Positions 1-13,526 of a DNA stretch of 64,000 nucleotides are shown here, piece by piece (the stretch's first letter is position 1; each line of letters begins with the position of its first letter). Made by a program: the position numbers and the translations under genes. The DNA comes from Rhodobacterales bacterium (GTDB lineage: Bacteria; Pseudomonadota; Alphaproteobacteria; Rhodobacterales; Rhodobacteraceae), in the NCBI GenBank assembly GCA_038324445.1, contig JBBQHZ010000003.1, forward strand, positions 2,106 through 66,105. The letters are read 5' to 3'. The notes under the pieces were generated by a model. It was not told the origin of the DNA, searched no databases, and worked only from the letters and a program-made list of their open reading frames with translations.

Positions 1-146
1 CAGTGCAGGGTCAGGCCTTGTGGCGGGAACGCGAGGAAGGTGGTGTCGGAGACCGAGGCACCGAAGATGATGATCAGGGGGCCCAACAGGAAGATATAGA
101 CCAGAATGGTCATCACGATCAGCAGGGGGTTGATGCGATTTGTCAT
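1..146 (-). CDS. ABC permease (PotC-like), 5' part; runs off the window edge
   Basis: Manual translation MTNRINPLLIVMTILVYIFLLGPLIIIFGASVSDTTFLAFPPQGLTLH; typical PotC N-terminus; starts 2 nt after the upstream permease stop. Confidence 0.85.
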   Translation of the reverse strand, partial: MTNRINPLLIVMTILVYIFLLGPLIIIFGASVSDTTFLAFPPQGLTLH

Positions 147-147
147 C

Positions 148-972
148 TCAGGTCGCCATCGGATTGAGGCGGCGCGCAAGGCGCGTCATGACCAGAACCG
201 TCGTCACGATCACCACCACCATGATCGCCGCAACGGTCGACGCGCTGACCCAGTCGAAGGACACCATGGCGCGCTGGTGCAGGAAGGTGCCCATCATCAT
301 CTGCCGGTTGCCGCCCAGCAGATGGGGCGTCGCGTAGGACGTGAAACTGGCGGTAAATACCAGCACGGCACCCACGATAAGGCCCGGCGTGGCCAGCGGC
401 AGGACCACCTGAAGGAAGGTCGCCGTTGGCGTGGCACCGAGCGAGGATGAGGCCTGGATCAGATCGTCGGGGATGTTCTCCAGCACACCGACCAGCACCA
501 GCACCATCAGGGGCACGAAGATATAGACCAGCGCGACGATCACCGCGCCTTGACTGTAGAGCAGACCCAGTGGCCGCTCGATGACGCCTGCCCATTCCAG
601 AAAACTGTTCAGGATGCCGTTGCGACCCAGGATGATGAGCCAAGCAAAGGACCGCACGACCACGCCGGTAAGCAAGGGAAACACCGCCAGAACGATCAGG
701 AGGGATTTCATCCAGGGCGGGCATCTCGACACGACATAGGCTGTCAGGAGGCCGAAGATCAGAGAGATGACGGTGGTGATCGCCGCAACCTCGAAGGTGC
801 GCCACAGAACCGATCGCTGGAAACCGGACGCGAAGAATTCGGCATAGGGCGCCGTGATCCCGCCAGGTGCGGTAAAGGTCACGCTGATCGTGGCTGCCAC
901 CGGGATGATCAGGAACAGGGTAATCGCCAAGGTCGCCGGCGACGACAAGATCCAGCCGGCAAGACGTTTCAT
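148..972 (-). CDS. ABC permease (PotB-like)
   Basis: 274 aa, multiple TM segments, EAA-like loop (LIQASSSLGATP). Confidence 0.9.
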   Translation of the reverse strand: MKRLAGWILSSPATLAITLFLIIPVAATISVTFTAPGGITAPYAEFFASGFQRSVLWRTFEVAAITTVISLIFGLLTAYVVSRCPPWMKSLLIVLAVFPLLTGVVVRSFAWLIILGRNGILNSFLEWAGVIERPLGLLYSQGAVIVALVYIFVPLMVLVLVGVLENIPDDLIQASSSLGATPTATFLQVVLPLATPGLIVGAVLVFTASFTSYATPHLLGGNRQMMMGTFLHQRAMVSFDWVSASTVAAIMVVVIVTTVLVMTRLARRLNPMAT

Positions 973-999
973 GGCACCTCCTGCGGCGCGTAAATAAGT

Positions 1000-1039
1000 C
1001 TCCGGGGCGCGCGCATATCGACTTACGCGCGCCCCGGAG
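1000..1039. repeat. 14-bp perfect inverted repeat just after the SBP gene; probable mRNA-stabilising hairpin or attenuating terminator
   Basis: ctccggggcgcgcg-N12-cgcgcgccccggag. Confidence 0.7.
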
Positions 1040-1047
1040 CTTCGGGT

Positions 1048-2085
1048 TCACATGCCGAAGATTTCGTTCCAGCGGTTGATCCAGCCGTCCAGCGCCGCGT
1101 TCATCGGCGCGTAGTCGACTCGCTGCAGACCGGCGATCATCTCATCGCCATAGGTCCAGATCGCAGCCTGCTCTTCCGTCAGCTGCACGCCGGTATTGAC
1201 CGGCGCATCGACGCCACGCTCGGCCAACTGCTGCTGAATTTCCGCCGATAGCACGAAGTTCAGGAACTGGTGCGCCAGTTCCGGTTCTGCCGCGCCGACA
1301 GGGATGTTGATGGTGTTCAGGGTCGCAATGGAACCTTCCTCAAGCTCGGCCCAGACAACCGAAGGGACGGCTTCCCGAATGCTGCCCAAGGTGAAGTCCT
1401 GCGCCATGGAGACGGTGATTTCGCCCGTGGAAAACAGGTTTATCATCTCGGAGCCGGTATTGTAGTTGGTCACCACGTTGGGCACCAACTCGGCCACCCG
1501 AGCGAAGGCCGCTTCCTCGTCGGCGTAAGCATCGACGCCGGCAAGCGATGCCGCCCGCAGCACGACCATCGGGCCTGCCGTTGTGGTGATGCCCGGCAGC
1601 GAGATGGACGAGGCGAGGTCTTCCCGCCACAGATCGCTCCACGATGTGATCGGTTCGGCGACTTCGTCCGCGTTGTAGACGATGCCCACGCGCCCGATGG
1701 TGTAGGCCGGGCCGTATTCGCCCTGCGGCGACTGCGCCAGATCGTAGATCTGGTCGATATTGGGCACTTGCGCGCGGTCGATGGGCTGGAACATGCCCAG
1801 CTCGATCCCGAGCTGCGAGAAACGGTCGGTCAGGTAGATCACGTCCACCCCTTCGCCGTTGCGCAACTGCAAGCGGCTCAGACGGTCAGCATTGTTGCCC
1901 GTCTCGAACACGACCTCGCAGCCGCACATCTCCTGAAACGGATTGATGATGATTTCCTGCAGCTGATCGCCGTTGAAACCCCACCACGAGACGGTGAAGG
2001 TCCGCGATTGTGCCATGGCCGGTGCGGCCGCCAGAAGTGCTGCCACCGAAACCGTCGCAGCGCCCAGAATTCCAATCTTCTTCAT
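1048..2085 (-). CDS. ABC substrate-binding protein (PotD/polyamine-thiamine family)
   Basis: Start re-picked at MKKIGILG; Sec signal ending PAMA; SWWG motif; neighbours are PotB/C-like permeases. Confidence 0.85.
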   Translation of the reverse strand: MKKIGILGAATVSVAALLAAAPAMAQSRTFTVSWWGFNGDQLQEIIINPFQEMCGCEVVFETGNNADRLSRLQLRNGEGVDVIYLTDRFSQLGIELGMFQPIDRAQVPNIDQIYDLAQSPQGEYGPAYTIGRVGIVYNADEVAEPITSWSDLWREDLASSISLPGITTTAGPMVVLRAASLAGVDAYADEEAAFARVAELVPNVVTNYNTGSEMINLFSTGEITVSMAQDFTLGSIREAVPSVVWAELEEGSIATLNTINIPVGAAEPELAHQFLNFVLSAEIQQQLAERGVDAPVNTGVQLTEEQAAIWTYGDEMIAGLQRVDYAPMNAALDGWINRWNEIFGM

Positions 2086-2233
2086 GATATCCCCCAGATG
2101 TCCGGAAGCCCAGTTGAACAAAGGTGCGGGTCCTCCATTGGTATTGTCGACAGTATGAAGAGAAGGCGACGGACGCAAGGTCAACGGCTCTGATACTGGC
2201 CCCAAAACCTGCGGCTGGCGAAGTTCTGGGCAG

Positions 2234-4102
2234 TTACCAGACGATCGGGTGGGTTTCGCCCGTCGCGACGTTGACGAAGCCATGGGGCGCAAGATCTGAC
2301 GGCGCCACCAGCACCCAGCGCCATGGCGCGCAGGTCAGCGTGGCGAAGGCCAGCCGTTCGGGAAAGCCGGGGAACCAGCGGGGGCTGAAGGTGGGCTCGT
2401 ACATCCAGTCGATCCTGGCACCCTCGGCGTAAAGCGCCTGCATCTCGGCGTCGAGGTCTTGAGGCGCGCGGCAGGTCATCAGGCCGCCCACTTCATACCG
2501 GACCGTTGCGACCAGTTGGCCCTCGCGCACCAATGCCCAGCCACCTTGCGTTTCCCGCAACGCATTGACCGCCTGCGCCATCGCGGCGTCGGACGATCCG
2601 ACCGCCCAGATGTTGTGCTTGTCGTGGCCCATCGAACAGGCAAGTGCCGTGTCGGGCGTTCTGGGGCCGGTGCCAAGCCAGAACATCGCCGAGGTTTTCC
2701 CCTCGCCCGAGAACCGGTCGACGATGGCGAACTTGGTGACATTGCGGTCCGGGTCGCGCTGCACCTGACCATCCGCTACTGGCAGGTCCATTTCGATGAA
2801 ATCATCGTGCCAGTGGAACGGGCGCAGCAGCGCTGCTGTCATCGTCTCGCGTCCGGGCAATGCGGCGATGGCGAAGTCCTCGGCCGTCATTTCGTGCGTG
2901 ATGTTGACGGTTCGCGTCGCCCAGTCGGGCCAATCGATTCTTGGCACGGGTTTGAGGTATCTGCCCGCCTCGGCCACCAGATCGCCATCGGCCCAGACCT
3001 TGGCGACCGACACGGCCTCGAGGTTATCAAGCAAGACGATATCCGCAAAGCGCCCCGGCGCGATGGACCCGACCCATGGCGTCAGGCGCATGTGGCGGGC
3101 AGGATTGATCGTGACCATCTGGATCGCAACCTCGGGCGCCAGCCCCGCTGCGATGGCAAGCCGCACGTTATGATCCGTCGCCCCCAGCTTCAGCGTATCG
3201 GAACAGGAGCGGTCGTCGGTTGTCAGGGCAAACTGGCTCCAGTCCGACAGACCAGCCGCCAGAAGGCCCGCGACCATCTCGGTCAGCGAATGCGGGCGCA
3301 GTTCCATGAAGAGACCGCGCCGCAGTTTGTCGAGCACTTCCTCGGTCGTCCATGCCTCGTGATCCGAGGCCAGACCAGCGGCGGCGAAGGCGTTGATCGT
3401 CGGCAGGTCCCTGATTCCGGCGGCGTGGCCTTCGACGACACCGCGCTTTTCGAATGTCGCCTCGATCATCCCCCAGAGCCGGTCGTAGGAGGGATTTTCC
3501 GGGTTCCAGACAGCGGGCCAATCCATCACCTCATCGAGCCCCGCCACCATCAGGTGATCGGCCAGAAACCCAAGCTGCTCGTCATAGCCGAAATGACCGC
3601 CGCCCCATTCATAGGCCGTCGGCGGCACTGCCGATCCGGGCAGCGGGAATATCTTCTGCGGGCTGCCCGCCAACCGCGCGGCGAACCAGAACTCAAGGTT
3701 CCGCGCCCCGTTGACGTTGGAGAATTCATGGCTCGCCTCGCAGGTCCAGGTATTGCCATGGGGCAGAACAAGCGCCGCCTCCCACTCCGGGGTGACGTGC
3801 GAGCTTTCGATGTGTTTGTGCACCTCGCCAAAGCCGGGCACTGCCATCAGTTCGGGTTCGTGCACCTCTCTGCCGACCGTGCCAGGCCAGGTGCCCGACG
3901 GCCCGACATAGGCGATGCGACGGCCCGCGATGATGATCTCCTGATCCGTCAGCCACATCCGCGAATGCACGTCGAGAAGCCGGCCCACGCGCAGCCTTGT
4001 ATCTGCAGGCGCGTGCCCCAGCGCGATCCGAACCAGCCGCTGACGAATCCTGACCTCGTCGGCGGCAGAAATCAGGTGATCCGGCAGGGAGCCCTCGATC
4101 AT
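2234..4102 (-). CDS. ade: Adenine deaminase-family amidohydrolase (COG1001-like)
   Basis: HKHIESS, EVMD, EGH, DHE, TDD, GHDKHN motifs; ATGA overlap with the nucleoside hydrolase. Confidence 0.8.
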   Translation of the reverse strand: MIEGSLPDHLISAADEVRIRQRLVRIALGHAPADTRLRVGRLLDVHSRMWLTDQEIIIAGRRIAYVGPSGTWPGTVGREVHEPELMAVPGFGEVHKHIESSHVTPEWEAALVLPHGNTWTCEASHEFSNVNGARNLEFWFAARLAGSPQKIFPLPGSAVPPTAYEWGGGHFGYDEQLGFLADHLMVAGLDEVMDWPAVWNPENPSYDRLWGMIEATFEKRGVVEGHAAGIRDLPTINAFAAAGLASDHEAWTTEEVLDKLRRGLFMELRPHSLTEMVAGLLAAGLSDWSQFALTTDDRSCSDTLKLGATDHNVRLAIAAGLAPEVAIQMVTINPARHMRLTPWVGSIAPGRFADIVLLDNLEAVSVAKVWADGDLVAEAGRYLKPVPRIDWPDWATRTVNITHEMTAEDFAIAALPGRETMTAALLRPFHWHDDFIEMDLPVADGQVQRDPDRNVTKFAIVDRFSGEGKTSAMFWLGTGPRTPDTALACSMGHDKHNIWAVGSSDAAMAQAVNALRETQGGWALVREGQLVATVRYEVGGLMTCRAPQDLDAEMQALYAEGARIDWMYEPTFSPRWFPGFPERLAFATLTCAPWRWVLVAPSDLAPHGFVNVATGETHPIVW

Positions 4103-5064
4103 GCCGGGGCACCGTCGACGGCGCTGTAGCCGATCGAGGCGCTGTAGCACGCCACCAACCGGTCCAGATCGACGGTTTCCACGATCGTGACCATGGCCGT
4201 GCCCAATCGCCCCGACGGGTCCACCAGCGTCATGCCGCGTGTCAGACCGAGGGCGAGGGCCACATCCACCGAGGCGCTCAGCGATCCCGTCACGATGCCG
4301 GGCGCGACCACGACGGCGGCGGCGAGCGGATCGACGAAGCGGAAATGATCGTCGCCGCCGAACCCCACATTGATCTTGCGCGCATGGGACGAGAGCGCGC
4401 GAGAAAAGGCCTTGGCCTGCCCCTCGGGCACCGCATCAAAAAGCGCGTCGACCTTGGCGCCGGATATCCGGTGGGCCGTGCACGTCTCCCACGGGACCAT
4501 GACGATCTCGATCCCGGCACCAAACACGATGGCGGCCGCTTCGGGGTCGGCGAAGATGTTGAACTCGGCCGCGGGCGTCACATTTCCCCTACCATGGATC
4601 GTGCCGCCCATGAGGGTCAGTTGCCCGATGCCCGGCAAACAATCAGGGGCAAGGCGCAGGGCAAGGGCTAGGTTCGTCAGCGGCCCGATCATCAGCAAAT
4701 CGACCTTGTCGCCGCGCCGCGCCGCGCCCCGAAAGCTGGCTCCAAGGACGCCGACAGCTTCTGCACTTGCTGCCTGCGGGATCGCGCCGGGACGCGGGGC
4801 ACCGCCCAATCCGTCCCTGCCATGGATGCTGGTCGCGTCGATCACGGGCTGGGTGAGCGGACGATCCGCGCCCATGTGCACAGGCACGTCCGGGCGTCCG
4901 GCAACCGCCAGAACCGTCAGAATATTGCGGGTCGCGCCATCCAGTCCGACATTCCCGAACACCGTGGTGATGGCATCAGGCGTCCGGCCCGCAGCGATCA
5001 ACATCAGCAGCGCCTGCGCGTCGTCGACGCCCCCGTCGGTATCGAGGATAAGCTGTCGTTTCAT
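4099..5064 (-). CDS. Nucleoside hydrolase (IU-NH family)
   Basis: DTDGGVDD Ca-binding motif, VFGN, HGRDGLG, GPLTNLA, GNVTPAAEFN. Confidence 0.9.
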   Translation of the reverse strand: MKRQLILDTDGGVDDAQALLMLIAAGRTPDAITTVFGNVGLDGATRNILTVLAVAGRPDVPVHMGADRPLTQPVIDATSIHGRDGLGGAPRPGAIPQAASAEAVGVLGASFRGAARRGDKVDLLMIGPLTNLALALRLAPDCLPGIGQLTLMGGTIHGRGNVTPAAEFNIFADPEAAAIVFGAGIEIVMVPWETCTAHRISGAKVDALFDAVPEGQAKAFSRALSSHARKINVGFGGDDHFRFVDPLAAAVVVAPGIVTGSLSASVDVALALGLTRGMTLVDPSGRLGTAMVTIVETVDLDRLVACYSASIGYSAVDGAPA

Positions 5065-5274
5065 CTGCAGGAACGCCTTCGATTGACCGCCGGATTTGGG
5101 TCAAGAAAGCAGACCCAAGTCGGACAAGTCCAGAGCCTTTCGCAACGACCAAGGAGGCTCTTCGGCACGATGCGTTGATGGGGAATTCCGTCGCGGGATT
5201 TCGGATGTCTTTCGACCACGAACCCGAGACCGGGCAATCCGCGTCTGCGATGGAGACTCGGGCTTCACGCCCGC

Positions 5275-5322
5275 TTACCTGTCCTGGCCCATGCTTCCAA
5301 GGTGGGGGCGCTTGAAAAGCAT
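5275..5322 (-). CDS. Candidate 15-aa leader peptide MLFKRPHLGSMGQDR
   Basis: ATG..TAA preceded by AGGAGGGGGTGG; stop abuts a hairpin arm; not in the ORF track (too short). Confidence 0.25.
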   Translation of the reverse strand: MLFKRPHLGSMGQDR

Positions 5323-5354
5323 ACCAAACCACCCCCTCCTCGCGCCGTTTGCGC

Positions 5355-5371
5355 AGCAGTGCTTGCGCCAA
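5355..5371 (-). promoter_or_regulatory. Candidate sigma54 (-24/-12) promoter for the nucleoside hydrolase operon
   Basis: TTGGCGCAAGCACTGCT: GG-N10-GC spacing, close to TGGCAC-N5-TTGC. Confidence 0.45.
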
Positions 5372-5451
5372 TTGCCACTTTTTTAGTCAGACGGCGCTAA
5401 TGTTCGCATCCGCAGCGTTTCCCCCGATGACTCGACAAATTTTTCGCCTAG

Positions 5452-5464
5452 GATTGGGCCAATC
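5452..5464. promoter_or_regulatory. Palindrome just upstream of the deaminase start, possible operator
   Basis: GATTGG-G-CCAATC, 9 nt before ATG 5474. Confidence 0.3.
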
Positions 5465-5473
5465 GGGGGCGAC

Positions 5474-6766
5474 ATGCTGGATCTCATCTTACGACAGGCT
5501 CGGTTGCCCGATGGGCAGGGGCCACTGGACATTGGGATCAACGGCGACAGGATCGCCACGATCGAGCATCGCATCGACGCGGACGCCGTCGAAGAAATCG
5601 ACGTGAGCGGGCGTCTGGTTGCGCCACCGTTCACCGACCCGCATTTTCACATGGACGCGACACTGAGCCTTGGCTTGCCGAGGTTGAACGTGTCGGGAAC
5701 CCTGCTGGAGGGGATCGCCCTCTGGGGCGAGTTGAAGCCGTTACTGACCCCTGAGGCGGTGATGGAACGCGCCTTGCGGTATTGCGATCTAGCCGTGTCG
5801 CAGGGCCTGTTGGCGATCCGCACCCATGTCGATATCTGCGATGACCGGTTGACCGCCGTCGAGGCGCTGATCGAGGTGCGCAGAATCGTGGCGCCCTATA
5901 TCGATCTGCAACTGGTGGCCTTCCCGCAAGACGGGCTCTACCGCTCGGCCACGGCGGAAGCGAACCTGTTGCGCGCGCTGGATATGGGTGTCGACGCGGT
6001 GGGCGGCATCCCGCATTTCGAGCGGACGATGGCAGACGGCGCACGCTCGGTTACGCGGTTATGCGAGATCGCGGCGGAACGGGACCTGATGCTTGATCTG
6101 CATTGCGATGAAAGCGACGACCCCCTGTCGCGGCATGTGGAAACGCTTGCCTCCGAAACGACCCGGTTGAGGCTGGGCGGCAGAGTGGTCGCAAGCCATG
6201 TCACCGCGATGCATTCCTATGACAATTACTACGCCAGCAAGCTTATCCCGCTGATCGCCGAAAGCGGGATGCATGTGGTCCCGAACCCGCTGATCAACAT
6301 CACCCTGCAGGGCCGGTCCGACACCTACCCCCGCCGCCGCGGGTTGACCCGCGTGACGGAGTTGCGTGCCGCGGGCGTGAACGTGGCGTTTGGTCAGGAT
6401 TGCACCATGGACCCGTGGTATTCGCTGGGCTCGGCCGACATGCTGGACGTGGCCCATATGGGGGTTCATGCCGTGCCGATGACATCGCGCGAAGCGATGG
6501 CCTGGGCCTTCACCTCGGTCACGGTCAACGGGGCGCGTGCCATGGGGCTGCCCGATCCCACGATCCGCAAAGGCGGCCCGGCCAACATGGTAGTCCTGCA
6601 GGCCCGCGACCCGATCGAGGCTGTCCGGCTCCGGGCCACACGGCTTGCCGTCATCAAGCACGGCAGGGTTCTGGCACGCACCGGCCCGCGTCTTGCCCAT
6701 CTCGACCTTCCCGGCCGCCCGGGCATGCTTGACCCGGCAGACTACGCCCCGGCGGCAGAAGACTGA
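5474..6766 (+). CDS. codA: Cytosine deaminase (CodA)-family amidohydrolase
   Basis: PHFHMD, HCDESDD, SHVTAM, GQDCTMDPWY correspond to E. coli CodA metal/catalytic motifs. Confidence 0.85.
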   Translation: MLDLILRQARLPDGQGPLDIGINGDRIATIEHRIDADAVEEIDVSGRLVAPPFTDPHFHMDATLSLGLPRLNVSGTLLEGIALWGELKPLLTPEAVMERALRYCDLAVSQGLLAIRTHVDICDDRLTAVEALIEVRRIVAPYIDLQLVAFPQDGLYRSATAEANLLRALDMGVDAVGGIPHFERTMADGARSVTRLCEIAAERDLMLDLHCDESDDPLSRHVETLASETTRLRLGGRVVASHVTAMHSYDNYYASKLIPLIAESGMHVVPNPLINITLQGRSDTYPRRRGLTRVTELRAAGVNVAFGQDCTMDPWYSLGSADMLDVAHMGVHAVPMTSREAMAWAFTSVTVNGARAMGLPDPTIRKGGPANMVVLQARDPIEAVRLRATRLAVIKHGRVLARTGPRLAHLDLPGRPGMLDPADYAPAAED

Positions 6767-6805
6767 ACACCCCGACAAACCGACACCAACAAGCGAGGAA
6801 TCCCA

Positions 6806-7789
6806 ATGATGCTGATATCCAATCGCCGACAGCTTCTGATCGGCGCGGCCGCCACGCTGGCCCTGCCCGCCTATATACGCCGGGCCAACGCCCAAACCGC
6901 GATCCGCATCGCCGGCGTCCACAACTCACCCGTCGAGAACGCCTGGAACAGCCGCATCCACCTGGCGTTTCAGGAAGCCGCGGCATCGGGCCTGATCGAG
7001 TATGAATTCTCCGAAGCCGTCGATGCCACCGACTATCCCCGCGCCATGCGCGAATATGCCGAAGGCGGCGCCCAGCTGGTCTGGGGCGAGTGCTATGCCG
7101 TCGAACGCGAGGCGCGCGAAGTGGCAGTCGATTACCCGGACACCTCGTTCCTGATGGGATCGTCCGGCGGACCGGAGGGCGACAATTTTGGCGTCTTCGG
7201 CACGCGCAACCACGAGGCGGCCTACCTTGCGGGCATGCTGGCGGGGCAGATGTCGGAAACCAACGTGTTCGGCTCGGTCGGCGGCTTCCCGATCCCCGAG
7301 GTGAACCTGTTGATCAACGCGTTCCGCATGGGCGTGACCGAGGTGAACCCCGATGCCACCTTCCTCAACGCCTTCCTTGGCGCATGGTTCGACCCGGCCC
7401 GCGCGAAAGAGGCCGGATTGGCGCAGATCGATGCGGGCGCCGACATCCTGTTCGGCGAGCGGATCGGCACGGCAGACGCCGCGCAGGAACGCAGCGTGCG
7501 GGCCATCGGTTCGTTGATCGATTATACACCGCGGTATCCGGGGACCGTATTCGCCAACGCGATCTGGAACTATGGCCCGACCATCGCCGCCATCGTGGCC
7601 GATATTCAGGCAGGCACCCCGGTGGGGCGCGATTACACTGAATATTCGTTCATGGCCTACGGCGGCAACGAACTGATCTATGTTGCGGACGAGGTGCCGG
7701 CAGAAGCCATCGCCGCGATGGAAGAACGCCAGGCTTTGATCCGGGCGGGCGAATGGGATGTGCCGATCGACAACGAAGAACCGGCCTGA
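6806..7789 (+). CDS. BMP-family (nucleoside-type) ABC substrate-binding protein with Tat signal
   Basis: NRRQLL twin-arginine signal; HEAAYLAGMLA, FGSVGG, GAWFDPA BMP motifs. Confidence 0.9.
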   Translation: MMLISNRRQLLIGAAATLALPAYIRRANAQTAIRIAGVHNSPVENAWNSRIHLAFQEAAASGLIEYEFSEAVDATDYPRAMREYAEGGAQLVWGECYAVEREAREVAVDYPDTSFLMGSSGGPEGDNFGVFGTRNHEAAYLAGMLAGQMSETNVFGSVGGFPIPEVNLLINAFRMGVTEVNPDATFLNAFLGAWFDPARAKEAGLAQIDAGADILFGERIGTADAAQERSVRAIGSLIDYTPRYPGTVFANAIWNYGPTIAAIVADIQAGTPVGRDYTEYSFMAYGGNELIYVADEVPAEAIAAMEERQALIRAGEWDVPIDNEEPA

Positions 7790-7800
7790 GCGCCTGTCTG

Positions 7801-9159
7801 GTGCACGACGCCACGGCCCTTGCCGCGGCCATTGCCGATGGGCACACCTCCGCCCGTGACGTGATGGACGCGTGCCTGGCCGCCTGTGAAGTGCAGGCGG
7901 CCCTTGGGGCCGTGGTTCGCCTTAACCCGACGATGGCCCGCGAGGCGGCGCTGCGTGCCGATGGGCAAGCCGTGCGACCGCGCGGGCCGTTTCACGGTGT
8001 TCCTTTTCTGATGAAGGACCTCGGAGCTTCGGCCAAGGGACTGCCCGCCTCGGCGGGGGCGGCGGCCTTGCGCGCGATTGCCGTTGAACCGGCGAAGGAC
8101 AGCGACCTTGCCGCAGCGTTTCGGAACGCAGGTCTGATCCCCTTTGGCCTGAGCGCCACGCCGCCCTTCGGCCTTGCCCTCAGCACCGAGCCGGAGGGGC
8201 AAGGCCCCGCGCGCAACCCTTGGGACCACACAAGGACGCCCGGCGGATCATCCGGCGGGGCGGCGGCTGCCGTGGCCGCCGGGATTGTGGCCATCGCCCA
8301 TGCCACCGATGCGGCCGGATCGATCCGGGTGCCTGCTGCATGCTGCGGGTTGGTAGGGCTCAAACCCTCGCGGGGGGCGGTACCGGGGGGGCCGGATTTC
8401 TCCAATCATCTGATGGGCATCGCCTCGGAACTTGTGCTCGCTCGGTCGGTCCGCGACGTCGGGGCGATTTTTGCCCATGTTCATGGCAGGCAGCCGTCGG
8501 GCGTTTGGCCCGCCGCCGTCAGGATTGGATTGGCCTTGCCGGAGCGATGCGATGTTGCCCAGACCGCCGCCACCCGCGCGGCGGGGCACGCTCTGGCAGA
8601 TGCGGGATGCGATGTGGTCGAGATCGCGGCGCCGGACCGGTTGGGCGCTGAGGCCCATGGTCTGGCCCGAAAGATCCTGTCGGTGTCCTTGGCGGACTGG
8701 CTGACGTCACTGGGTATCGCAGACGACGCCGTGCCGCCCCTTGCGGGCCGCATTGCCGCAGAAGGCCGCGCCCTGACCGGCATGGCGGTTTTTGGCCTCT
8801 CCCGAGAAATCGCGCGCCTATCCGCTATGGCACGGGCCCTGTTCGATGGCTTGGACGCCATGCTGACCCCGGTGCTGGCCAACCATCCCCCGCTGGTTGG
8901 CGCGTTCGATCTGTCCAAAACCGATACGGATGCGCATTTCGCGCAGATGGAGGCGTTTGCGCCCAACGCCGCCCTTGCCAATGTGGCGGGGCTGCCTGCC
9001 CTTGCCGTGCCCTTCGGGATGGCCGACGGCTTGCCGGTCGGCGTCCAGCTGATGGCCGCGAAAGGGCGCGATTTCCTCCTCTGCCACCTCGCGTCCCTGA
9101 TCGAAGCGCGCGCGCCGACGCTGCGCTATCCCGGTCCGATTGCGGGACTGCCGACATGA
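7801..9159 (+). CDS. Amidase signature family enzyme; start may be CTG 7786
   Basis: GVPFLMKD (Lys), GGSSGG, DAAGSIRVPA (Ser) triad motifs. Confidence 0.85.
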   Translation: MHDATALAAAIADGHTSARDVMDACLAACEVQAALGAVVRLNPTMAREAALRADGQAVRPRGPFHGVPFLMKDLGASAKGLPASAGAAALRAIAVEPAKDSDLAAAFRNAGLIPFGLSATPPFGLALSTEPEGQGPARNPWDHTRTPGGSSGGAAAAVAAGIVAIAHATDAAGSIRVPAACCGLVGLKPSRGAVPGGPDFSNHLMGIASELVLARSVRDVGAIFAHVHGRQPSGVWPAAVRIGLALPERCDVAQTAATRAAGHALADAGCDVVEIAAPDRLGAEAHGLARKILSVSLADWLTSLGIADDAVPPLAGRIAAEGRALTGMAVFGLSREIARLSAMARALFDGLDAMLTPVLANHPPLVGAFDLSKTDTDAHFAQMEAFAPNAALANVAGLPALAVPFGMADGLPVGVQLMAAKGRDFLLCHLASLIEARAPTLRYPGPIAGLPT

Positions 9160-10676
9160 CGGCGGTGCTGGAGCTTGACGGCATCACCAAGCGGTTCGGG
9201 GCGCTGACGGCCAACGACTCCGTCTCGCTGACCCTTGGTCAGGGTGAAATACTCGCCCTTCTGGGCGAGAACGGCGCCGGCAAGACGACGCTTATGAACA
9301 TTCTGTTTGGCCATTACGCGGCGGATGCGGGCAGCGTCCGGGTGTTCGGGCAGGAATTGCCTTCGGGCAAACCGCGCGCTGCCATCGAGGCGGGCGTCGG
9401 CATGGTGCACCAGCATTTCACGCTCGCGGGCAACCTGACGGTTCTGGACAACATCATGCTGGGGTCGGAATCGCTTTTGCGGGCGACGTCGTCGCGTGCC
9501 TCGGCGCGCCGCAAACTGATGCAGATCGCCGAGCGCTTTGGTCTGCCCGTGTCTCCTGATGAGAAGGTCAGTCGGCTGTCCGTGGGAGAGCGACAGCGGG
9601 TCGAAATCCTCAAGGCGCTCTACCGCGATGCGCGCATCCTGATCCTTGACGAGCCGACGGCGGTGCTGGCCCGGCCCGAAGCGCAACGCCTGTTCGAGAC
9701 GCTGAAGGAGATGACGAAGGAGGGGCTTTCCCTGATTTTCATCAGCCACAAGCTGCACGAGGTGATGGCTGCATCTGATCGGGTGGCAGTGCTGCGCGGC
9801 GGGCGCATGGTGGCCGAGCGCGTGACGGCTGAGACAACCCCGGAAGAGCTGGCCGAGCTGATGGTGGGCCGCAGGGTCGAACGTCCGGTCCGTCAGGATC
9901 ACCGGATCGGGGCACCGGTGCTTGTGGCAAACAGAATGCGGGTCGACGTCGGGAGCGAGACGAAACTGCAGGACGTGTCCTTCACCATCGGGGCCGGCGA
10001 AATTCTTGGGATCGTGGGCGTATCCGGCAACGGGCAGGCCAGCCTTGGCGCGCTTGTGTCCGGGTTGACGCGCCTGTCTGCCGGAACCCTCACGCTCGAC
10101 GGGCAGGATGTCGGGCTGATGGGGCCGCGTGGGATGATCCGAGCGGGCGTGGGCCGGGTGCCGGAGGATCGCCACAGCGAAGGCGTTGTGGGGGAATTGG
10201 CGGTTTGGGAAAACGCCGTGCTGGAACGATTGCGCTCGCCGGAGTTTTCAAAGCGCGGCTTTGTGCGGCGGGCGGCCTGCAAGGCCCACGCCGCCGGGTT
10301 GATCGACCGCTTCGATATTCGCGGCGCAACCCCCGACACGCGGACGCGCCTTCTGTCGGGAGGCAATATGCAAAAGCTGATCCTTGGCCGCTGTCTGTCG
10401 ATCGGCCCCCGGTTCGTGCTGGCGACCCAGCCGACCCGTGGCCTTGACGAAGGGGCGATTGCGGCGGTGCATTCCGAATTGCTGGCAGCGCGCGCGGCCG
10501 GGGCCGCGATCTTGTTGATCTCCGAGGAACTGGAAGAGGCCGTCGCCTTGTCGGACCGGATTCAGGCGATGGTAAAGGGACGCCTCTCGGATCCGATATC
10601 GGCCAGCGAGGCCGACGCGCAACGCCTTGGCCTGATGATGACGGGCGTCTGGAAGGAGGGGTCTGATGCGGCTTGA
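9156..10676 (+). CDS. CUT2/nucleoside ABC ATPase (two NBDs)
   Basis: GENGAGKTT, LSVGERQ, LSGGNMQK. Confidence 0.92.
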   Translation: MTAVLELDGITKRFGALTANDSVSLTLGQGEILALLGENGAGKTTLMNILFGHYAADAGSVRVFGQELPSGKPRAAIEAGVGMVHQHFTLAGNLTVLDNIMLGSESLLRATSSRASARRKLMQIAERFGLPVSPDEKVSRLSVGERQRVEILKALYRDARILILDEPTAVLARPEAQRLFETLKEMTKEGLSLIFISHKLHEVMAASDRVAVLRGGRMVAERVTAETTPEELAELMVGRRVERPVRQDHRIGAPVLVANRMRVDVGSETKLQDVSFTIGAGEILGIVGVSGNGQASLGALVSGLTRLSAGTLTLDGQDVGLMGPRGMIRAGVGRVPEDRHSEGVVGELAVWENAVLERLRSPEFSKRGFVRRAACKAHAAGLIDRFDIRGATPDTRTRLLSGGNMQKLILGRCLSIGPRFVLATQPTRGLDEGAIAAVHSELLAARAAGAAILLISEELEEAVALSDRIQAMVKGRLSDPISASEADAQRLGLMMTGVWKEGSDAA

Positions 10677-11709
10677 ACGACGGCCACAGGTTCCGCCTTA
10701 TCTTGTCATCGTGGCGCCCCTTGCGGCCGTGGCCGTGTCCCTGACCCTTGCGGCGGGCCTGATCGCTGCTGCGGGTGTGAACCCGCTGACAGCCTATGCC
10801 GAGATGGTGCGCGGCGCCATGGGCTCCCGCCTGTCGCTGACGGAAATGCTGACCCGCGCGACGCCACTGATCCTGACCGGGCTGGCGGCAGCCGTCGCGT
10901 TCCGTGCGCGGCTCTGGAACATCGGGGGCGAGGGACAATTCTTGATGGGCGCCTTGGTGACGGCGTGGGTCGGTCATTCGCTTGACCTGCCGCCCGTTCC
11001 CGGCATCGCTGTCCTGCTTGTCCTCGGCATGGCCTCTGGCGCGATCCTTCTGGCGGGGCCAGCCTATCTGCGCTTGCGGTTCGGGGTCGATGAGGTGGTC
11101 ACGACGCTGCTGCTCAACTTCATCGTGATCCTATTCGTCGGTCTGATGGTCGAGGGGCCGCTGCGCGATCCGCTGGCGTTCGGGTGGCCGTCTTCGGTGC
11201 CGGTGGACGGCGACTTCCGCCTGCCGGACCTGATCGCGCGGACCCGGCTTCATGTCGGCTTCCTGATCGCCCTTGTCGCGGCTGGCATCGTCTGGCTTGT
11301 CCTGTCACGAACGGTTTTTGGCGCCGAGACGCGCGCCGTGGGGCTGAACGCGGCGGCGGCGAAATTTGCCGGGATCTCGCTCCCCGTGAACCTGATGGCC
11401 GTTGCGCTGTTTTCAGGAGCTTTGGCGGGGCTGGCGGGATCGATCGAGGTTCTCGGCGTGACGGCCAACGTCACTACCACGATCTCGCCGGGCTTTGGCT
11501 ATGCGGGGATTGTCGTGGCGATGCTGGCGGCGCTCCATCCCGCGGGCGTCGTGGTGGCTGCCGTCTTTGTCGCCACGGTCTTCGTCGGGGCAGACGCCAT
11601 GAGCCGCGCCACCGGGGTGCCGAGTTTCATCGCCGACGTGATCGTGGCCTTGTGCCTTCTGAGCATGCTGGTGGCCCTCTTGTTCACGACCTACCGGGTG
11701 CGAAGATGA
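10666..11709 (+). CDS. Nucleoside-type ABC permease 1
   Basis: LWNIGGEGQ motif, many TM segments. Confidence 0.9.
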   Translation: MRLERRPQVPPYLVIVAPLAAVAVSLTLAAGLIAAAGVNPLTAYAEMVRGAMGSRLSLTEMLTRATPLILTGLAAAVAFRARLWNIGGEGQFLMGALVTAWVGHSLDLPPVPGIAVLLVLGMASGAILLAGPAYLRLRFGVDEVVTTLLLNFIVILFVGLMVEGPLRDPLAFGWPSSVPVDGDFRLPDLIARTRLHVGFLIALVAAGIVWLVLSRTVFGAETRAVGLNAAAAKFAGISLPVNLMAVALFSGALAGLAGSIEVLGVTANVTTTISPGFGYAGIVVAMLAALHPAGVVVAAVFVATVFVGADAMSRATGVPSFIADVIVALCLLSMLVALLFTTYRVRR

Positions 11710-12647
11710 TCGAAGCGTTGGACATTCTCGCGAATACCAGCCTTTGGGCGGCTGTCCTGCGTATCGCCACACCCCTGATCTTCGGGGTTCTGGGCGCGCT
11801 CTTGTGCGAAAGGGCGGGCGTTCTGAACCTCGGGATCGAGGGGATCATGACGATGGGGGCCATGACCGGATGGCTGACCGTCTATTTGGGCGGGGACCTA
11901 TGGACCGGGCTGCTGGTGGCCGCGATGTCGGGGGCGGTGATCGGGCTGCTGCATGCGATCCTGACCGTCCCGCTGGGCCTGTCGCAGCATGTTTCGGGGC
12001 TTGGCATCACGCTTTTCGCGTCGTCGTTGGCCTATTACCTCTACCGTTTGCTGGTGGAAGTCGGCGACCTGCCGCCCACGATCGAGCCGTTCCGCCCGCT
12101 TGATGTGCCGATCCTGTCAGACATTCCCATCCTCGGGCCGATCCTGTTCGCACAAACCCTGCCGACCTATCTGGCGCTGCTGTCAGTGGCGGTGATGGCC
12201 TATGTTCTTGCCCGCACGCCGTTGGGGCTGGCCATCCGGATGACCGGCGAGAACCCCCATGCCGTCGAGGCGCAGGGATTGAGCCCCATCCTCATCCGTA
12301 TTGGCGCGGTCGTGGCCGGATCGGCGTTGATGGCCATTGGCGGGGCGTTCCTGACGATGGCGGCCTTCAACAGCTTTTTCCCCGAAATGGTGCAAGGACG
12401 CGGCTGGATATGCATAGCGCTTGTCGTTTTCGCCTCGTGGCGGCCCGGCAAGGCACTGTTGGGCGCGCTGTTGTTTGCGTTTTTCGACGCCTACCAACTT
12501 CGCCTGCAAACGGTGGTCGAGGGGGTGCCCTATCAGTTGTTCCTGATGGCGCCGTACGTTCTGTCGATCGTGGCCCTCATCCTTGTTGCCCGGCGCGCCG
12601 AGGTGCCGGAAGCCCTGATGGCACCCTATCGACGCGGGGAGCGGTAG
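11706..12647 (+). CDS. Nucleoside-type ABC permease 2
   Basis: Start MIEALDIL (ATGA overlap); ERAGVLNLGIEG; GRGWICIALV. Confidence 0.9.
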   Translation: MIEALDILANTSLWAAVLRIATPLIFGVLGALLCERAGVLNLGIEGIMTMGAMTGWLTVYLGGDLWTGLLVAAMSGAVIGLLHAILTVPLGLSQHVSGLGITLFASSLAYYLYRLLVEVGDLPPTIEPFRPLDVPILSDIPILGPILFAQTLPTYLALLSVAVMAYVLARTPLGLAIRMTGENPHAVEAQGLSPILIRIGAVVAGSALMAIGGAFLTMAAFNSFFPEMVQGRGWICIALVVFASWRPGKALLGALLFAFFDAYQLRLQTVVEGVPYQLFLMAPYVLSIVALILVARRAEVPEALMAPYRRGER

Positions 12648-12693
12648 GGTCGCAGCCTGCGCAAAACGACCCCACCCCTCAGTGCATCCACCC

Positions 12694-13218
12694 TCACCCC
12701 GCAGGCGACCAGAGCGCGTCGGGGTTGGCGCGAGTCACGGCCATGCCGGTCGGATAGCTGACCAGCTCCAGCTGCATGCCCCACGGTGCGCGGAAGTAGA
12801 CCCAGGTCAGGCCTTCGGTAGGCCCTCCCGCCATGGTGGTCGGCTCCCCCTGAACCTCGACGCCATGTGCCTTGAGGTGCGAAACAGCTGCGTCCATGTT
12901 GTCGACCACGAAGCCCAGATGGGCCGCGCCGACGTCGCTGTTTGGCGGCGGAACCTGCGCGGCCCCGTCGAGGGAATATTCGAACAGCTCGAAGGCCGGG
13001 CCGTTCTTGCAGCGCAGCATGCGAAGCGTCTTTATGACCGCGCGCGGATGCACGCCCAGATGCACCGCCATCCAGTCGTCATCCGCCACGAAAGGCCCGA
13101 TCTCGAACACCAGGGTGCAGCCGATCACATCGACAAAGAAGCGTGTCGCGGCCTCCATGTCCGGAACGGTGAAGCCGACGTGATCGGTGCCGCTGAGGCC
13201 CGGCAGCCCGCCGCTCAT
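12694..13218 (-). CDS. VOC/glyoxalase-family metalloenzyme
   Basis: DHVGFTV..FELFEY..AHLGFVV..QLELV (H/E/H/E ligands); start MSGGLPG overlaps upstream stop. Confidence 0.85.
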   Translation of the reverse strand: MSGGLPGLSGTDHVGFTVPDMEAATRFFVDVIGCTLVFEIGPFVADDDWMAVHLGVHPRAVIKTLRMLRCKNGPAFELFEYSLDGAAQVPPPNSDVGAAHLGFVVDNMDAAVSHLKAHGVEVQGEPTTMAGGPTEGLTWVYFRAPWGMQLELVSYPTGMAVTRANPDALWSPAG

Positions 13219-13526
13219 CTGGTCGAGACCGGGTCGCAGACCATCGTCATCAGGCGCAGCTTCTGCAACTCGAACACCTTGTCCTTCACCTCGGCAAAGG
13301 CGGCCAGATGCGGTAGTTCTATGTGCTTGTCCCACTCGGCCCGGTCCGTCCAGTTCTCGTAGAAGGTGAACTCGGCCGGATCGTCATTGTCCTGATGCAG
13401 CCAGTATTCGACGCAGCCGGGTTCGGCCCGCGTCGGGTCGATCAGGCCGGTCAGGAAGGCGCGGGTTTCCTCGATCTGCCCATCTATGGCGCGCAGATGG
13501 GCGATGACGGTCAGTTGCTTGCTCAT
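13215..13526 (-). CDS. ABM-family putative quinol monooxygenase
   Basis: TRAEPGCVEY..FTFYENW..HIELPHL. Confidence 0.85.
   Translation of the reverse strand: MSKQLTVIAHLRAIDGQIEETRAFLTGLIDPTRAEPGCVEYWLHQDNDDPAEFTFYENWTDRAEWDKHIELPHLAAFAEVKDKVFELQKLRLMTMVCDPVSTR

Follow-up and report, generated by a model that had tools for sequence, protein, structure and literature searches.

A divergent pair of operons in a Rhodobacteraceae genome raises the question of whether two sets of genes for nucleobase-type compounds that lie back to back form one salvage locus or two separate systems. The window, which here means the whole stretch of 64,000 nucleotides analyzed (contig C3, positions 2106 to 66105 of JBBQHZ010000003.1; guanine-plus-cytosine content, 61 to 69%), comes from a 4.28-Mb genome in 296 contigs. 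Its minus strand encodes AdeL, a divergent member of the adenine deaminase family cog1001, together with the nucleoside hydrolase NH1, and its plus strand encodes a CodA-type cytosine deaminase; each operon has its own ATP-binding cassette (ABC) importer. A preliminary description of this DNA had read the pair as one locus that salvages modified (methylated) nucleosides rather than standard ones. We found that the two operons are inherited independently and that each is a conserved unit of ABC importer and hydrolytic deaminases with catalytic residues kept. Taken as a whole, the explanation we consider probable is that these are two independent nitrogen- and base-scavenging operons, one of the cytosine type and one of the adenine type, brought back to back by a rearrangement private to this genome; we infer every substrate identity.

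The two operons are inherited independently

Co-occurrence was assessed in a family sample of one genome for each of 301 genera, with chance overlap computed under independence, and the context of AdeL was assessed in 80 AdeL loci of other species, with neighbors taken within 10 kb. AdeL was present in 10 of the 301 genera and the CodA type in 93. The two occurred together in 3 genera, compared with 3.1 expected (P = 0.64). As a control, AdeL was paired with the binding protein of its own operon; this pair occurred together in 8 genomes, compared with 0.4 expected (P = 1.4e-11), and seven of these eight pairs lay within 10 kb.

Adjacency of the operons was seen in this genome only. The other two family genomes with both carry them on different contigs (G165) or 159 kb apart (G234). 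Within the same genus (19 species), orthologues of AdeL (86 to 89% identity) occur in seven other species and orthologues of CodA (81 to 87%) in three, and where both operons are present, 2 Mb separates them (G017) or they fall on separate contigs (G014). No CodA or amidase orthologue lay within 10 kb of AdeL at any of the 80 AdeL loci. The closest metagenomic CodA relatives have a response regulator (93%-identical relative) or a TRAP transporter (90%-identical relative) upstream, and homology of the intergenic region to the CodA promoters of relatives extends over only the ~130 nucleotides nearest the CodA start. The NH1/CodA junction lies ~7 kb inside a 73.9-kb contig, and misassembly at this point is therefore unlikely.

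Collectively, overlap at the chance level and adjacency in a single genome led us to reject a single co-inherited gene island. The idea of one functional locus is likewise not supported, since the operons are distant in relatives and AdeL loci lack CodA and amidase neighbors. The preliminary description had itself named rare co-occurrence in relatives as the outcome that would speak against it, and the neighborhood comparison returned rare co-occurrence.

Gene content of the locus

Pfam and NCBIfam scans of the window proteins bore out the two divergent operons and all of the genes first described: both ABC importers, a nucleoside hydrolase, AdeL, the CodA type, and an amidase. The features are as follows.

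1 to 146, minus strand: 5' part of the gene for the second permease of the minus-strand ABC importer (translation of contig C3; the gene runs on upstream of the window, C3:1463-2251).
148 to 972, minus strand: first permease of the same importer, 274 amino acids (open reading frame [ORF] and translation).
1048 to 2085, minus strand: PotD-fold periplasmic binding protein of the 4EDP type (Pfam SBP_bac_8/6/1/11).
2234 to 4102, minus strand: AdeL, divergent cog1001 (adenine deaminase-family) amidohydrolase, 622 amino acids (Adenine_deam_C and Amidohydro_1).
4099 to 5064, minus strand: NH1, nucleoside hydrolase of the IU-NH family (PF01156, 256 bits).
5065 to 5473, no strand: divergent intergenic region common to both operons, 409 bp (alignment with CodA promoters of relatives).
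5441 to 5457, plus strand: TTTTCGCCTAGGATTGG, degenerate remnant of a RutR-type palindrome (comparison with the upstream regions of CodA in relatives).
5474 to 6766, plus strand: CodA-type cytosine deaminase of the alphaproteobacterial Cys-314 lineage, 430 amino acids (NF005748/PRK07572).
6806 to 7789, plus strand: Bmp/PnrA-family periplasmic binding protein with a Tat-like signal (PF02608).
7753 to 9159, plus strand: amidase-signature amidase (PF01425, 227 bits); the likely true start is GTG at 7801 (452 amino acids).
9156 to 10676, plus strand: tandem ABC ATPase of the Bmp-type importer (Pfam and NCBIfam), with an ATGA overlap with the amidase stop.
10666 to 11709, plus strand: permease 1 of the Bmp-type importer (PF02653).
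11706 to 12647, plus strand: permease 2 of the Bmp-type importer (PF02653), with an ATGA overlap with permease 1.

The extent originally drawn for the locus, 2234 to 12647, leaves out the minus-strand importer, which that description names, and the half of the minus operon that lies off the window. This operon leaves both the window and contig C3, running through the second permease, an ATPase, and the first 129 codons of a cog0402 amidohydrolase gene (C3:1-387). Inside this gene, the end of contig C3 shares 141 identical bases with contig C208, and C208 (1-3400) carries the rest of it (445 amino acids), an M20 peptidase of the PRK09104 family, and a second nucleoside hydrolase, NH2. Beyond NH2 on C208 are a divergent M20D acylase-type gene and then a phosphoribosyltransferase-like ORF. 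At the far end of the plus operon, a glyoxalase/dioxygenase-superfamily ORF (12694-13335, minus strand) follows the last permease and is part of the next gene cluster.

Within the minus operon, the ATG of AdeL overlaps the stop of NH1 (ATGA). The first permease is 86 to 87% identical to its syntenic relatives and 46% identical to the permease of a Clostridium operon; the second has 92 to 94% identical orthologues within syntenic loci. The PotD-fold binding protein likely starts at MKKIGIL, with a signal peptide next.

The CodA-type deaminase and the plus-strand operon

The plus-strand deaminase passed the NF005748/PRK07572 model for cytosine deaminase (736.6 bits; cut-off, 438) and fell below the cut-off of the Escherichia coli-type model PRK09230 (412 versus 483). 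It aligns end to end with structures of E. coli CodA (E ~ 1e-104; ~50% identity) and matches the Klebsiella 5-methylcytosine deaminase 4R7W at E = 2e-99. The HxH motif, Gln156, His214/Glu217, His246, and Asp313 (E. coli numbering) are retained, and the motifs HFH57-59, AFPQDG, HCDE, SHVTAMHS, and GQD occupy the same columns as in E. coli CodA. At the discriminator position the sequence reads GQDC compared with GHDD in E. coli, which places a Cys at the position of Asp314.

PMC6186785, citing Hitchcock 2014, states that Asp314/315 bars 5-methylcytosine from E. coli CodA, that its replacement lets this substrate in, and that Kpn00632, which has a natural Ser at that position, accepts 5-methylcytosine. 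(Hitchcock 2014 and Kamat 2011 are cited throughout by way of PMC6186785, PMC13296781, and PMC12133300.) By alignment, this CodA homologue lacks the Asp that excludes 5-methylcytosine (PMC6186785). A Cys at 314 is present in 119 of the 120 closest CodA homologues, of which 115 read FGQDCT, and in all 31 of the 41 family loci for which the motif was read, down to 54% identity. There is no other CodA in the genome. Since the Cys is the norm of the family and this is the sole CodA, the enzyme is the ordinary cytosine deaminase of its lineage; deviation from E. coli alone is thus no evidence of a special role. By analogy, we expect it to act on cytosine, 5-methylcytosine, and 5-fluorocytosine, the latter two probably because Cys replaces the excluding Asp314.

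Kpn00632 (PDB codes 4R7W, 4R85, and 4R88), Rsp0341 of Rhodobacter sphaeroides, and CodA of the E. coli codBA operon have the fold and the metal and catalytic residues in common with the enzyme described here. The discriminating Asp is missing on both sides of the comparison with Kpn00632 and Rsp0341, which have been shown to deaminate 5-methylcytosine (Hitchcock et al. 2014), the residue here being Cys whereas it is Ser in Kpn00632 (PMC6186785). Like E. coli codBA, the plus operon couples a transporter and a deaminase; the transporter is, however, a Bmp-type ABC importer instead of the NCS1 permease CodB, and an amidase is inserted.

A Bmp-type ABC importer adjoins the CodA type in 35 of the 41 family loci, in two gene orders. 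Type 1, found in 12 loci, runs deaminase, Bmp, amidase, ATPase, permease, permease, and the same six-gene order is present on a Ruegeria plasmid. Type 2 runs Bmp, ATPase, permease, permease, deaminase and has no amidase. The binding proteins of the two types are only ~50% identical, and the CodA homologues of type 1 are distinct as well, with Gln at position 312 and Thr at 315. The closest structures to the Bmp binding protein are AtzT (6PI5; 6e-29) and Brucella 3S99. In family architecture the plus-strand importer, with its Bmp binding protein, tandem ATPase, and pair of BPD_transp_2 permeases, matches the PnrA/Bmp nucleoside importers and AtzT. Unlike the nucleoside importers, however, the plus-strand importer is linked to a nucleobase deaminase in an operon that has no nucleoside-cleaving enzyme, which suggests a base rather than a nucleoside as its ligand. 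The plus operon is probably, as part of the overall explanation given above, the standard alphaproteobacterial cytosine operon in its type-1 form; it adds one more example to a known arrangement in which a transporter is joined to a CodA, here of the lineage without Asp314.

The amidase keeps Lys88, GGSSGG164-169, and Ser190 in all 12 orthologues, with the Lys, cis-Ser, Ser triad intact; its closest structure is NylA (3A2P). It is 43 to 67% identical between operons (L010-L012, L116, and L118-L126) whose other genes are 60 to 91% identical. The amidase therefore evolves much faster than its operon neighbors, in the manner of an accessory gene.

In type-1 relatives, the CodA operon is closely preceded by TTTACCATATGGTCAAA, a RutR-like palindrome, which places this operon in an ordinary pyrimidine regulon. 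In the window, the RutR-type site at 5441-5457 is degenerate (TTTTCGCCTAGGATTGG), and a search of 5065-5473 that allowed up to 2 mismatches found no TTGACCnnnnGGTCAA-type RutR box. Elsewhere the genome retains a RutR-like gene and three TTGACCnnnnGGTCAA boxes that are perfect (C6:14300, C12:42569, and C128:10268); thus, this copy of the operon seems to be out of the RutR regulon. A riboswitch was also looked for and rejected: neither the 409-bp intergenic region nor any other part of 1-13000 matched an Rfam family at E <= 1. With a Cys CodA that is the family norm and has no second copy in the genome, and with a RutR-type box in its relatives, the plus operon gives no ground for the proposal that the locus takes modified substrates rather than standard ones.

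AdeL, the nucleoside hydrolases, and the cog0402 enzyme

AdeL scored 264.7 bits against the adenine deaminase equivalog TIGR01178, below the cut-off of 472.5, and the canonical Ade of the same genome (contig C114) scored 460.3. AdeL matched PDB entry 3NQB at E = 7e-51, and no other PDB chain matched it at E <= 1e-5. The ligands of the binuclear metal center (H95, H97, E191, H226, H248, and D296) and of the third metal site (H125, E126, H493, and D494) are kept, as are the adenine-contacting residues R269 and D297; ligand and contact residues are conserved across 81 AdeL and 18 canonical sequences. Residue roles follow PMC12133300, and AdeL has retained all three adenine contacts of Atu4426 (Arg, Asp, and His). 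There are 85 fixed differences between AdeL and canonical adenine deaminases, many of them flanking ligand residues; among those directly beside ligands are K96, H102, D190/D194/W195, R231, S246, W251, P270/H271, and K495/N497. Agrobacterium Atu4426 (3NQB) and E. coli Ade (cog1001 subgroups 1 and 4) have a two-domain architecture, metal sites, and adenine contacts in common with AdeL, at an identity of ~30%. The annotation pipeline (PGAP) gives AdeL a domain name only, "adenine deaminase C-terminal domain-containing protein."

The same superfamily branch includes the N6-methyladenine/N6-methyladenosine deaminases Bh0637 and YerA/Bsu06560 (cog1001 subgroup 2), which show that N6-substituted substrates and nucleosides can be accepted by cog1001 enzymes. 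In YerA the third metal site is lost and a Gly stands where Atu4426 has Asp290, making room for ribose (PMC12133300 and PMC8643624). AdeL keeps the HE and HD of the third metal site and has Asp297 at the position of Atu4426 Asp290, and we therefore rejected it as an N6-methyl deaminase of the YerA/Bh0637 type. The suggested action on N6-methyladenine or its nucleoside thus finds none of the published features of that type in AdeL.

Adenine contacts and the Asp lost in YerA are kept, AdeL is translationally coupled to NH1, and one AdeL context contains an NCS2 permease; together, these point to a free 6-aminopurine-type base as the AdeL substrate. E. coli ade is paired with adeQ, much as this AdeL relative is paired with the NCS2 permease. 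AdeL, and likewise NH1, may act on a noncanonical substrate. A canonical Ade coexists with AdeL in this genome, and at 7 of the 80 AdeL loci (L017, L031, L032, L039, L048, L056, and L060) a canonical-type adenine deaminase, 29 to 34% identical to AdeL, lies in the same cluster, which speaks against AdeL being simply redundant with adenine deaminase.

NH1 has the PF01156 fold and the calcium motif DTDGGVDD (DxDxxxDD). Its Val244 aligns with the general-acid His of the HDP motif in RihA structures, and this Val is kept in 27 of 32 NH1 orthologues; NH1 was therefore rejected as a group I IU-NH with the general-acid His of xHDP. NH2, on C208, reads LHDP, with the His present. Deviation at the specificity positions of the three nucleobase enzymes, as first described, is thus real, but the Cys of CodA, the Val of NH1, and the changes in AdeL are each the norm of their family rather than a local oddity.

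The cog0402 enzyme (445 amino acids) is closest over its full length to the structures 4GBD and 4F0R (E ~ 1e-72 to 1e-75), which are deaminases of 5'-methylthioadenosine (MTA) and S-adenosylhomocysteine (SAH). It keeps HxH, His/Glu, Asp, and an LPLE motif, whose position we take to be the ribose-binding position of Tm0936. Tm0936-type deaminases (PA3170, 4GBD, and Cv1032, 4F0R) are alike in full-length match and catalytic residues; unlike them, the cog0402 enzyme has an ABC importer, a cog1001 enzyme, and nucleoside hydrolases as operon partners, which are not described for those enzymes. Its orthologue in G018 fell below every equivalog cut-off (218 versus 779 for PRK15493, MTA/SAH; 265 versus 522 for PRK07228, 5'-deoxyadenosine). 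The M20 protein of the operon is of the dipeptidase type (PRK09104/PRK08201) and not of the hydantase type.

The 4EDP-type importer and conservation of the minus-strand operon

Some records label the family of the minus-strand binding protein "polyamine/spermidine-putrescine." The protein scored 64 bits against the PotD equivalog (cut-off, 582), and the positions aligned with TDDARE and WMDS of PotD, presumably its polyamine-binding positions, read ITTTAGP and TLNT, so that the polyamine carboxylates are not conserved. On both grounds we rejected polyamine import. The protein matches PDB entry 4EDP of Clostridium perfringens over its full length (E = 1.9e-74; 40 to 47% identity), a structural genomics entry named "ABC transporter substrate-binding protein."

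Close homologues of 4EDP (85% and 84%) in Clostridium sp. and Faecalimicrobium (L158-L161) are encoded in an operon of permease, permease, ATPase, binding protein, cog1001, and cog0402, the same importer, cog1001, and cog0402 core as in the minus operon. The clostridial operon differs in that its cog1001 enzyme is a near-canonical adenine deaminase (TIGR01178, 436 bits) and nucleoside hydrolases are missing; its cog0402 enzyme is 36% identical to the one described here. The presence of an adenine deaminase and a cog0402 amidohydrolase in the operon suggests a purine-type ligand for the 4EDP homologues. The core of the minus operon is thus conserved from Alphaproteobacteria to Clostridia.

The full minus operon was found in seven same-genus species, Pararhodobacter, Pelagibacterium, a record titled Ahrensia marina, and Devosia. 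AdeL relatives occur at 470 places in species-representative genomes, mostly in Devosia, Rhizobium/Agrobacterium, and Pararhodobacter and its relatives. A PotD-fold importer adjoins AdeL at 59 of the 80 loci, with nucleoside hydrolase-type hydrolases at 42, the cog0402 enzyme at 40, and an adenine phosphoribosyltransferase-like protein at 17. The importer-cog0402 pair persists in family members that lack AdeL (L167-L169). Class-level sampling, in which the binding protein appeared in 2 of 301 genomes, was too sparse to use.

Other contexts of AdeL also occur. On Agrobacterium plasmids it stands with an NCS2 nucleobase permease and an AraC regulator, and a Bmp-type context includes NH1, another cog0402 enzyme, a creatininase-family protein, and a LacI regulator like RbsR, CytR, or PurR. 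At L170 and L171 (G071 and G159) the AdeL module has no 4EDP-type importer and consists of AdeL, LacI, a creatininase-family protein, a different cog0402 enzyme, the hydrolase without the His, and a Bmp importer; in G159 this module is flanked by two copies of AdeL (75% and 63%). On an Agrobacterium vitis plasmid (L117, 6598-20693), AdeL is flanked on one side by a 4EDP-type importer, a CN-hydrolase annotated as N-carbamoyl-D-amino-acid hydrolase, and an XRE-cupin regulator and on the other by a D-threonine-aldolase-like pyridoxal phosphate enzyme, a Bmp importer, and a TatD hydrolase, and insertion sequence elements bound the whole cluster. Carbamoylase-like neighbors of this kind raised the idea of a route for t6A or N-carbamoyl amino acids. 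We rejected it, because the M20 of the minus operon is dipeptidase-type and, of the loci examined, this A. vitis plasmid locus alone had the CN-hydrolase; it enters only into the noncanonical adenine route considered below.

The minus operon is built of known enzyme families, and we found no description of its conserved combination or of the AdeL subfamily. A literature search for either operon type, the AdeL subfamily, or the ligand of 4EDP found none.

Proposed working and alternative explanations

In the explanation we favor, the Bmp-type ABC importer of the plus operon would take up cytosine or a close pyrimidine analogue, and the CodA type would deaminate cytosine to uracil and ammonia and probably also 5-methylcytosine to thymine and 5-fluorocytosine to 5-fluorouracil; the amidase-signature enzyme would ride along in the operon. 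To judge from its gene families, the minus operon most likely imports and deaminates adenine-type compounds. Its PotD-fold, 4EDP-type importer would take up an adenine-containing base or nucleoside. Two pairs of enzymes would then act. At the base level, the His-less NH1 would free the base and the coupled AdeL would deaminate it hydrolytically at C6; at the nucleoside level, the MTA deaminase-like cog0402 enzyme would deaminate adenosine-type nucleosides, and the canonical NH2 would then cleave the deaminated nucleosides to hypoxanthine and sugar. The hypoxanthine may pass to salvage or catabolism. To this extent the preliminary description is supported, in that both operons are systems for the uptake and hydrolytic deamination of nucleobase-type compounds.

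Several observations weigh against this explanation. NH1 lacks the general acid required for ordinary purine leaving groups. AdeL is far below the adenine deaminase cut-off, systematically different at 85 positions, and accompanied at seven loci by a canonical-type enzyme in the same cluster. Rhizobium-type loci consist of the importer and AdeL only and have no hydrolase, which leaves either a base or a nucleoside as the importer ligand. The amidase has no assigned role in cytosine use, and neither operon was found described in the literature.

The departures of AdeL and NH1 from canonical family members bear on two other explanations. That both operons form one island harvesting modified (methylated) nucleosides, for example, m5C and m6A, from RNA and DNA breakdown would draw on these departures, on a CodA homologue without the Asp that excludes 5-methylcytosine (PMC6186785), and on the 409-bp divergent promoter region that the operons have in common here. 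We consider this very improbable: co-occurrence is at chance, the operons adjoin in this genome alone, the sole CodA of the genome has the Cys that is normal for its family, AdeL has none of the YerA/Bh0637 features (PMC12133300 and PMC8643624), and in the corresponding operon of Clostridia the cog1001 enzyme is a near-canonical adenine deaminase. A narrower alternative, less improbable but still not likely, is that AdeL, NH1, and the 4EDP-type importer are a dedicated route for a noncanonical adenine nucleoside, either N6-substituted (cytokinin ribosides, m6A, or t6A type) or oxidized (2-oxo- or 8-oxoadenine). NH1 would then free a base that needs no N7 protonation, and the part of AdeL would be to displace the N6 substituent or, with a damaged base, to deaminate it. 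A 2013 JACS study by Hitchcock et al. is said to include 2-oxo- and 8-oxoadenine enzymes among the cog0402 relatives of Tm0936. The conserved His-to-Val change in NH1, the clustering of the 85 fixed AdeL differences around ligand motifs, AdeL beside canonical-type Ade at seven loci, and the recurrence of carbamoylase- and acylase-type hydrolases (CN-hydrolase, M20D, and M20) near AdeL all fit such a route. However, neither the third metal site nor the Asp missing from YerA has been lost in AdeL (PMC8643624 and PMC12133300), a plain purine base would suit the NCS2 permease context, the M20 of the operon is not of the hydantase type, and nothing points directly to any one modified substrate.

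The remaining alternatives concern one operon each. The minus operon might recycle environmental by-products of S-adenosylmethionine (MTA, 5'-deoxyadenosine, and SAH), with the cog0402 enzyme making the inosine analogue, the hydrolases freeing hypoxanthine or adenine, and AdeL deaminating adenine. The best structural relatives of the cog0402 enzyme are indeed MTA/SAH deaminases (4GBD and 4F0R), and the importer-cog0402 pair is the most constant core, both where AdeL is missing and in Clostridia; but with scores so far below the equivalog cut-offs, and an operon without genes for methylthioribose or deoxyribose salvage, we regard this as unlikely. For the plus operon, the amidase invites the idea that an amide-bearing pyrimidine (N4-acylcytosine) or an amino-heterocycle (creatinine or ammelide) is imported and that amidase and CodA act serially. 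The amidase is fixed, with its triad intact, in the 12 type-1 loci, the type-1 binding proteins and the CodA residues at 312 and 315 are set apart from those of type 2, and the nearest structure to the binding protein is that of AtzT, which binds atrazine/purine compounds. On the other side, all cytosine-contacting residues of CodA are kept in what is the only CodA of the genome, the RutR-type box of relatives points to ordinary pyrimidines, and the rapid divergence of the amidase is accessory-like, so that we doubt this explanation too.

Implications

The adenine-type operon is a widely conserved system that merits functional study. 4EDP is a solved structure inside a conserved core of importer, cog1001, and cog0402, which makes the ligand of this orphan structure testable. 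If the noncanonical adenine nucleoside route were true, AdeL would be a new specificity class within cog1001, and the 4EDP-type protein would be, to our knowledge, the first known PotD-fold binding protein for a purine compound. The ligand of 4EDP, once found, would give a function to ~470 AdeL loci in species-representative genomes and to many gut and soil Clostridia.

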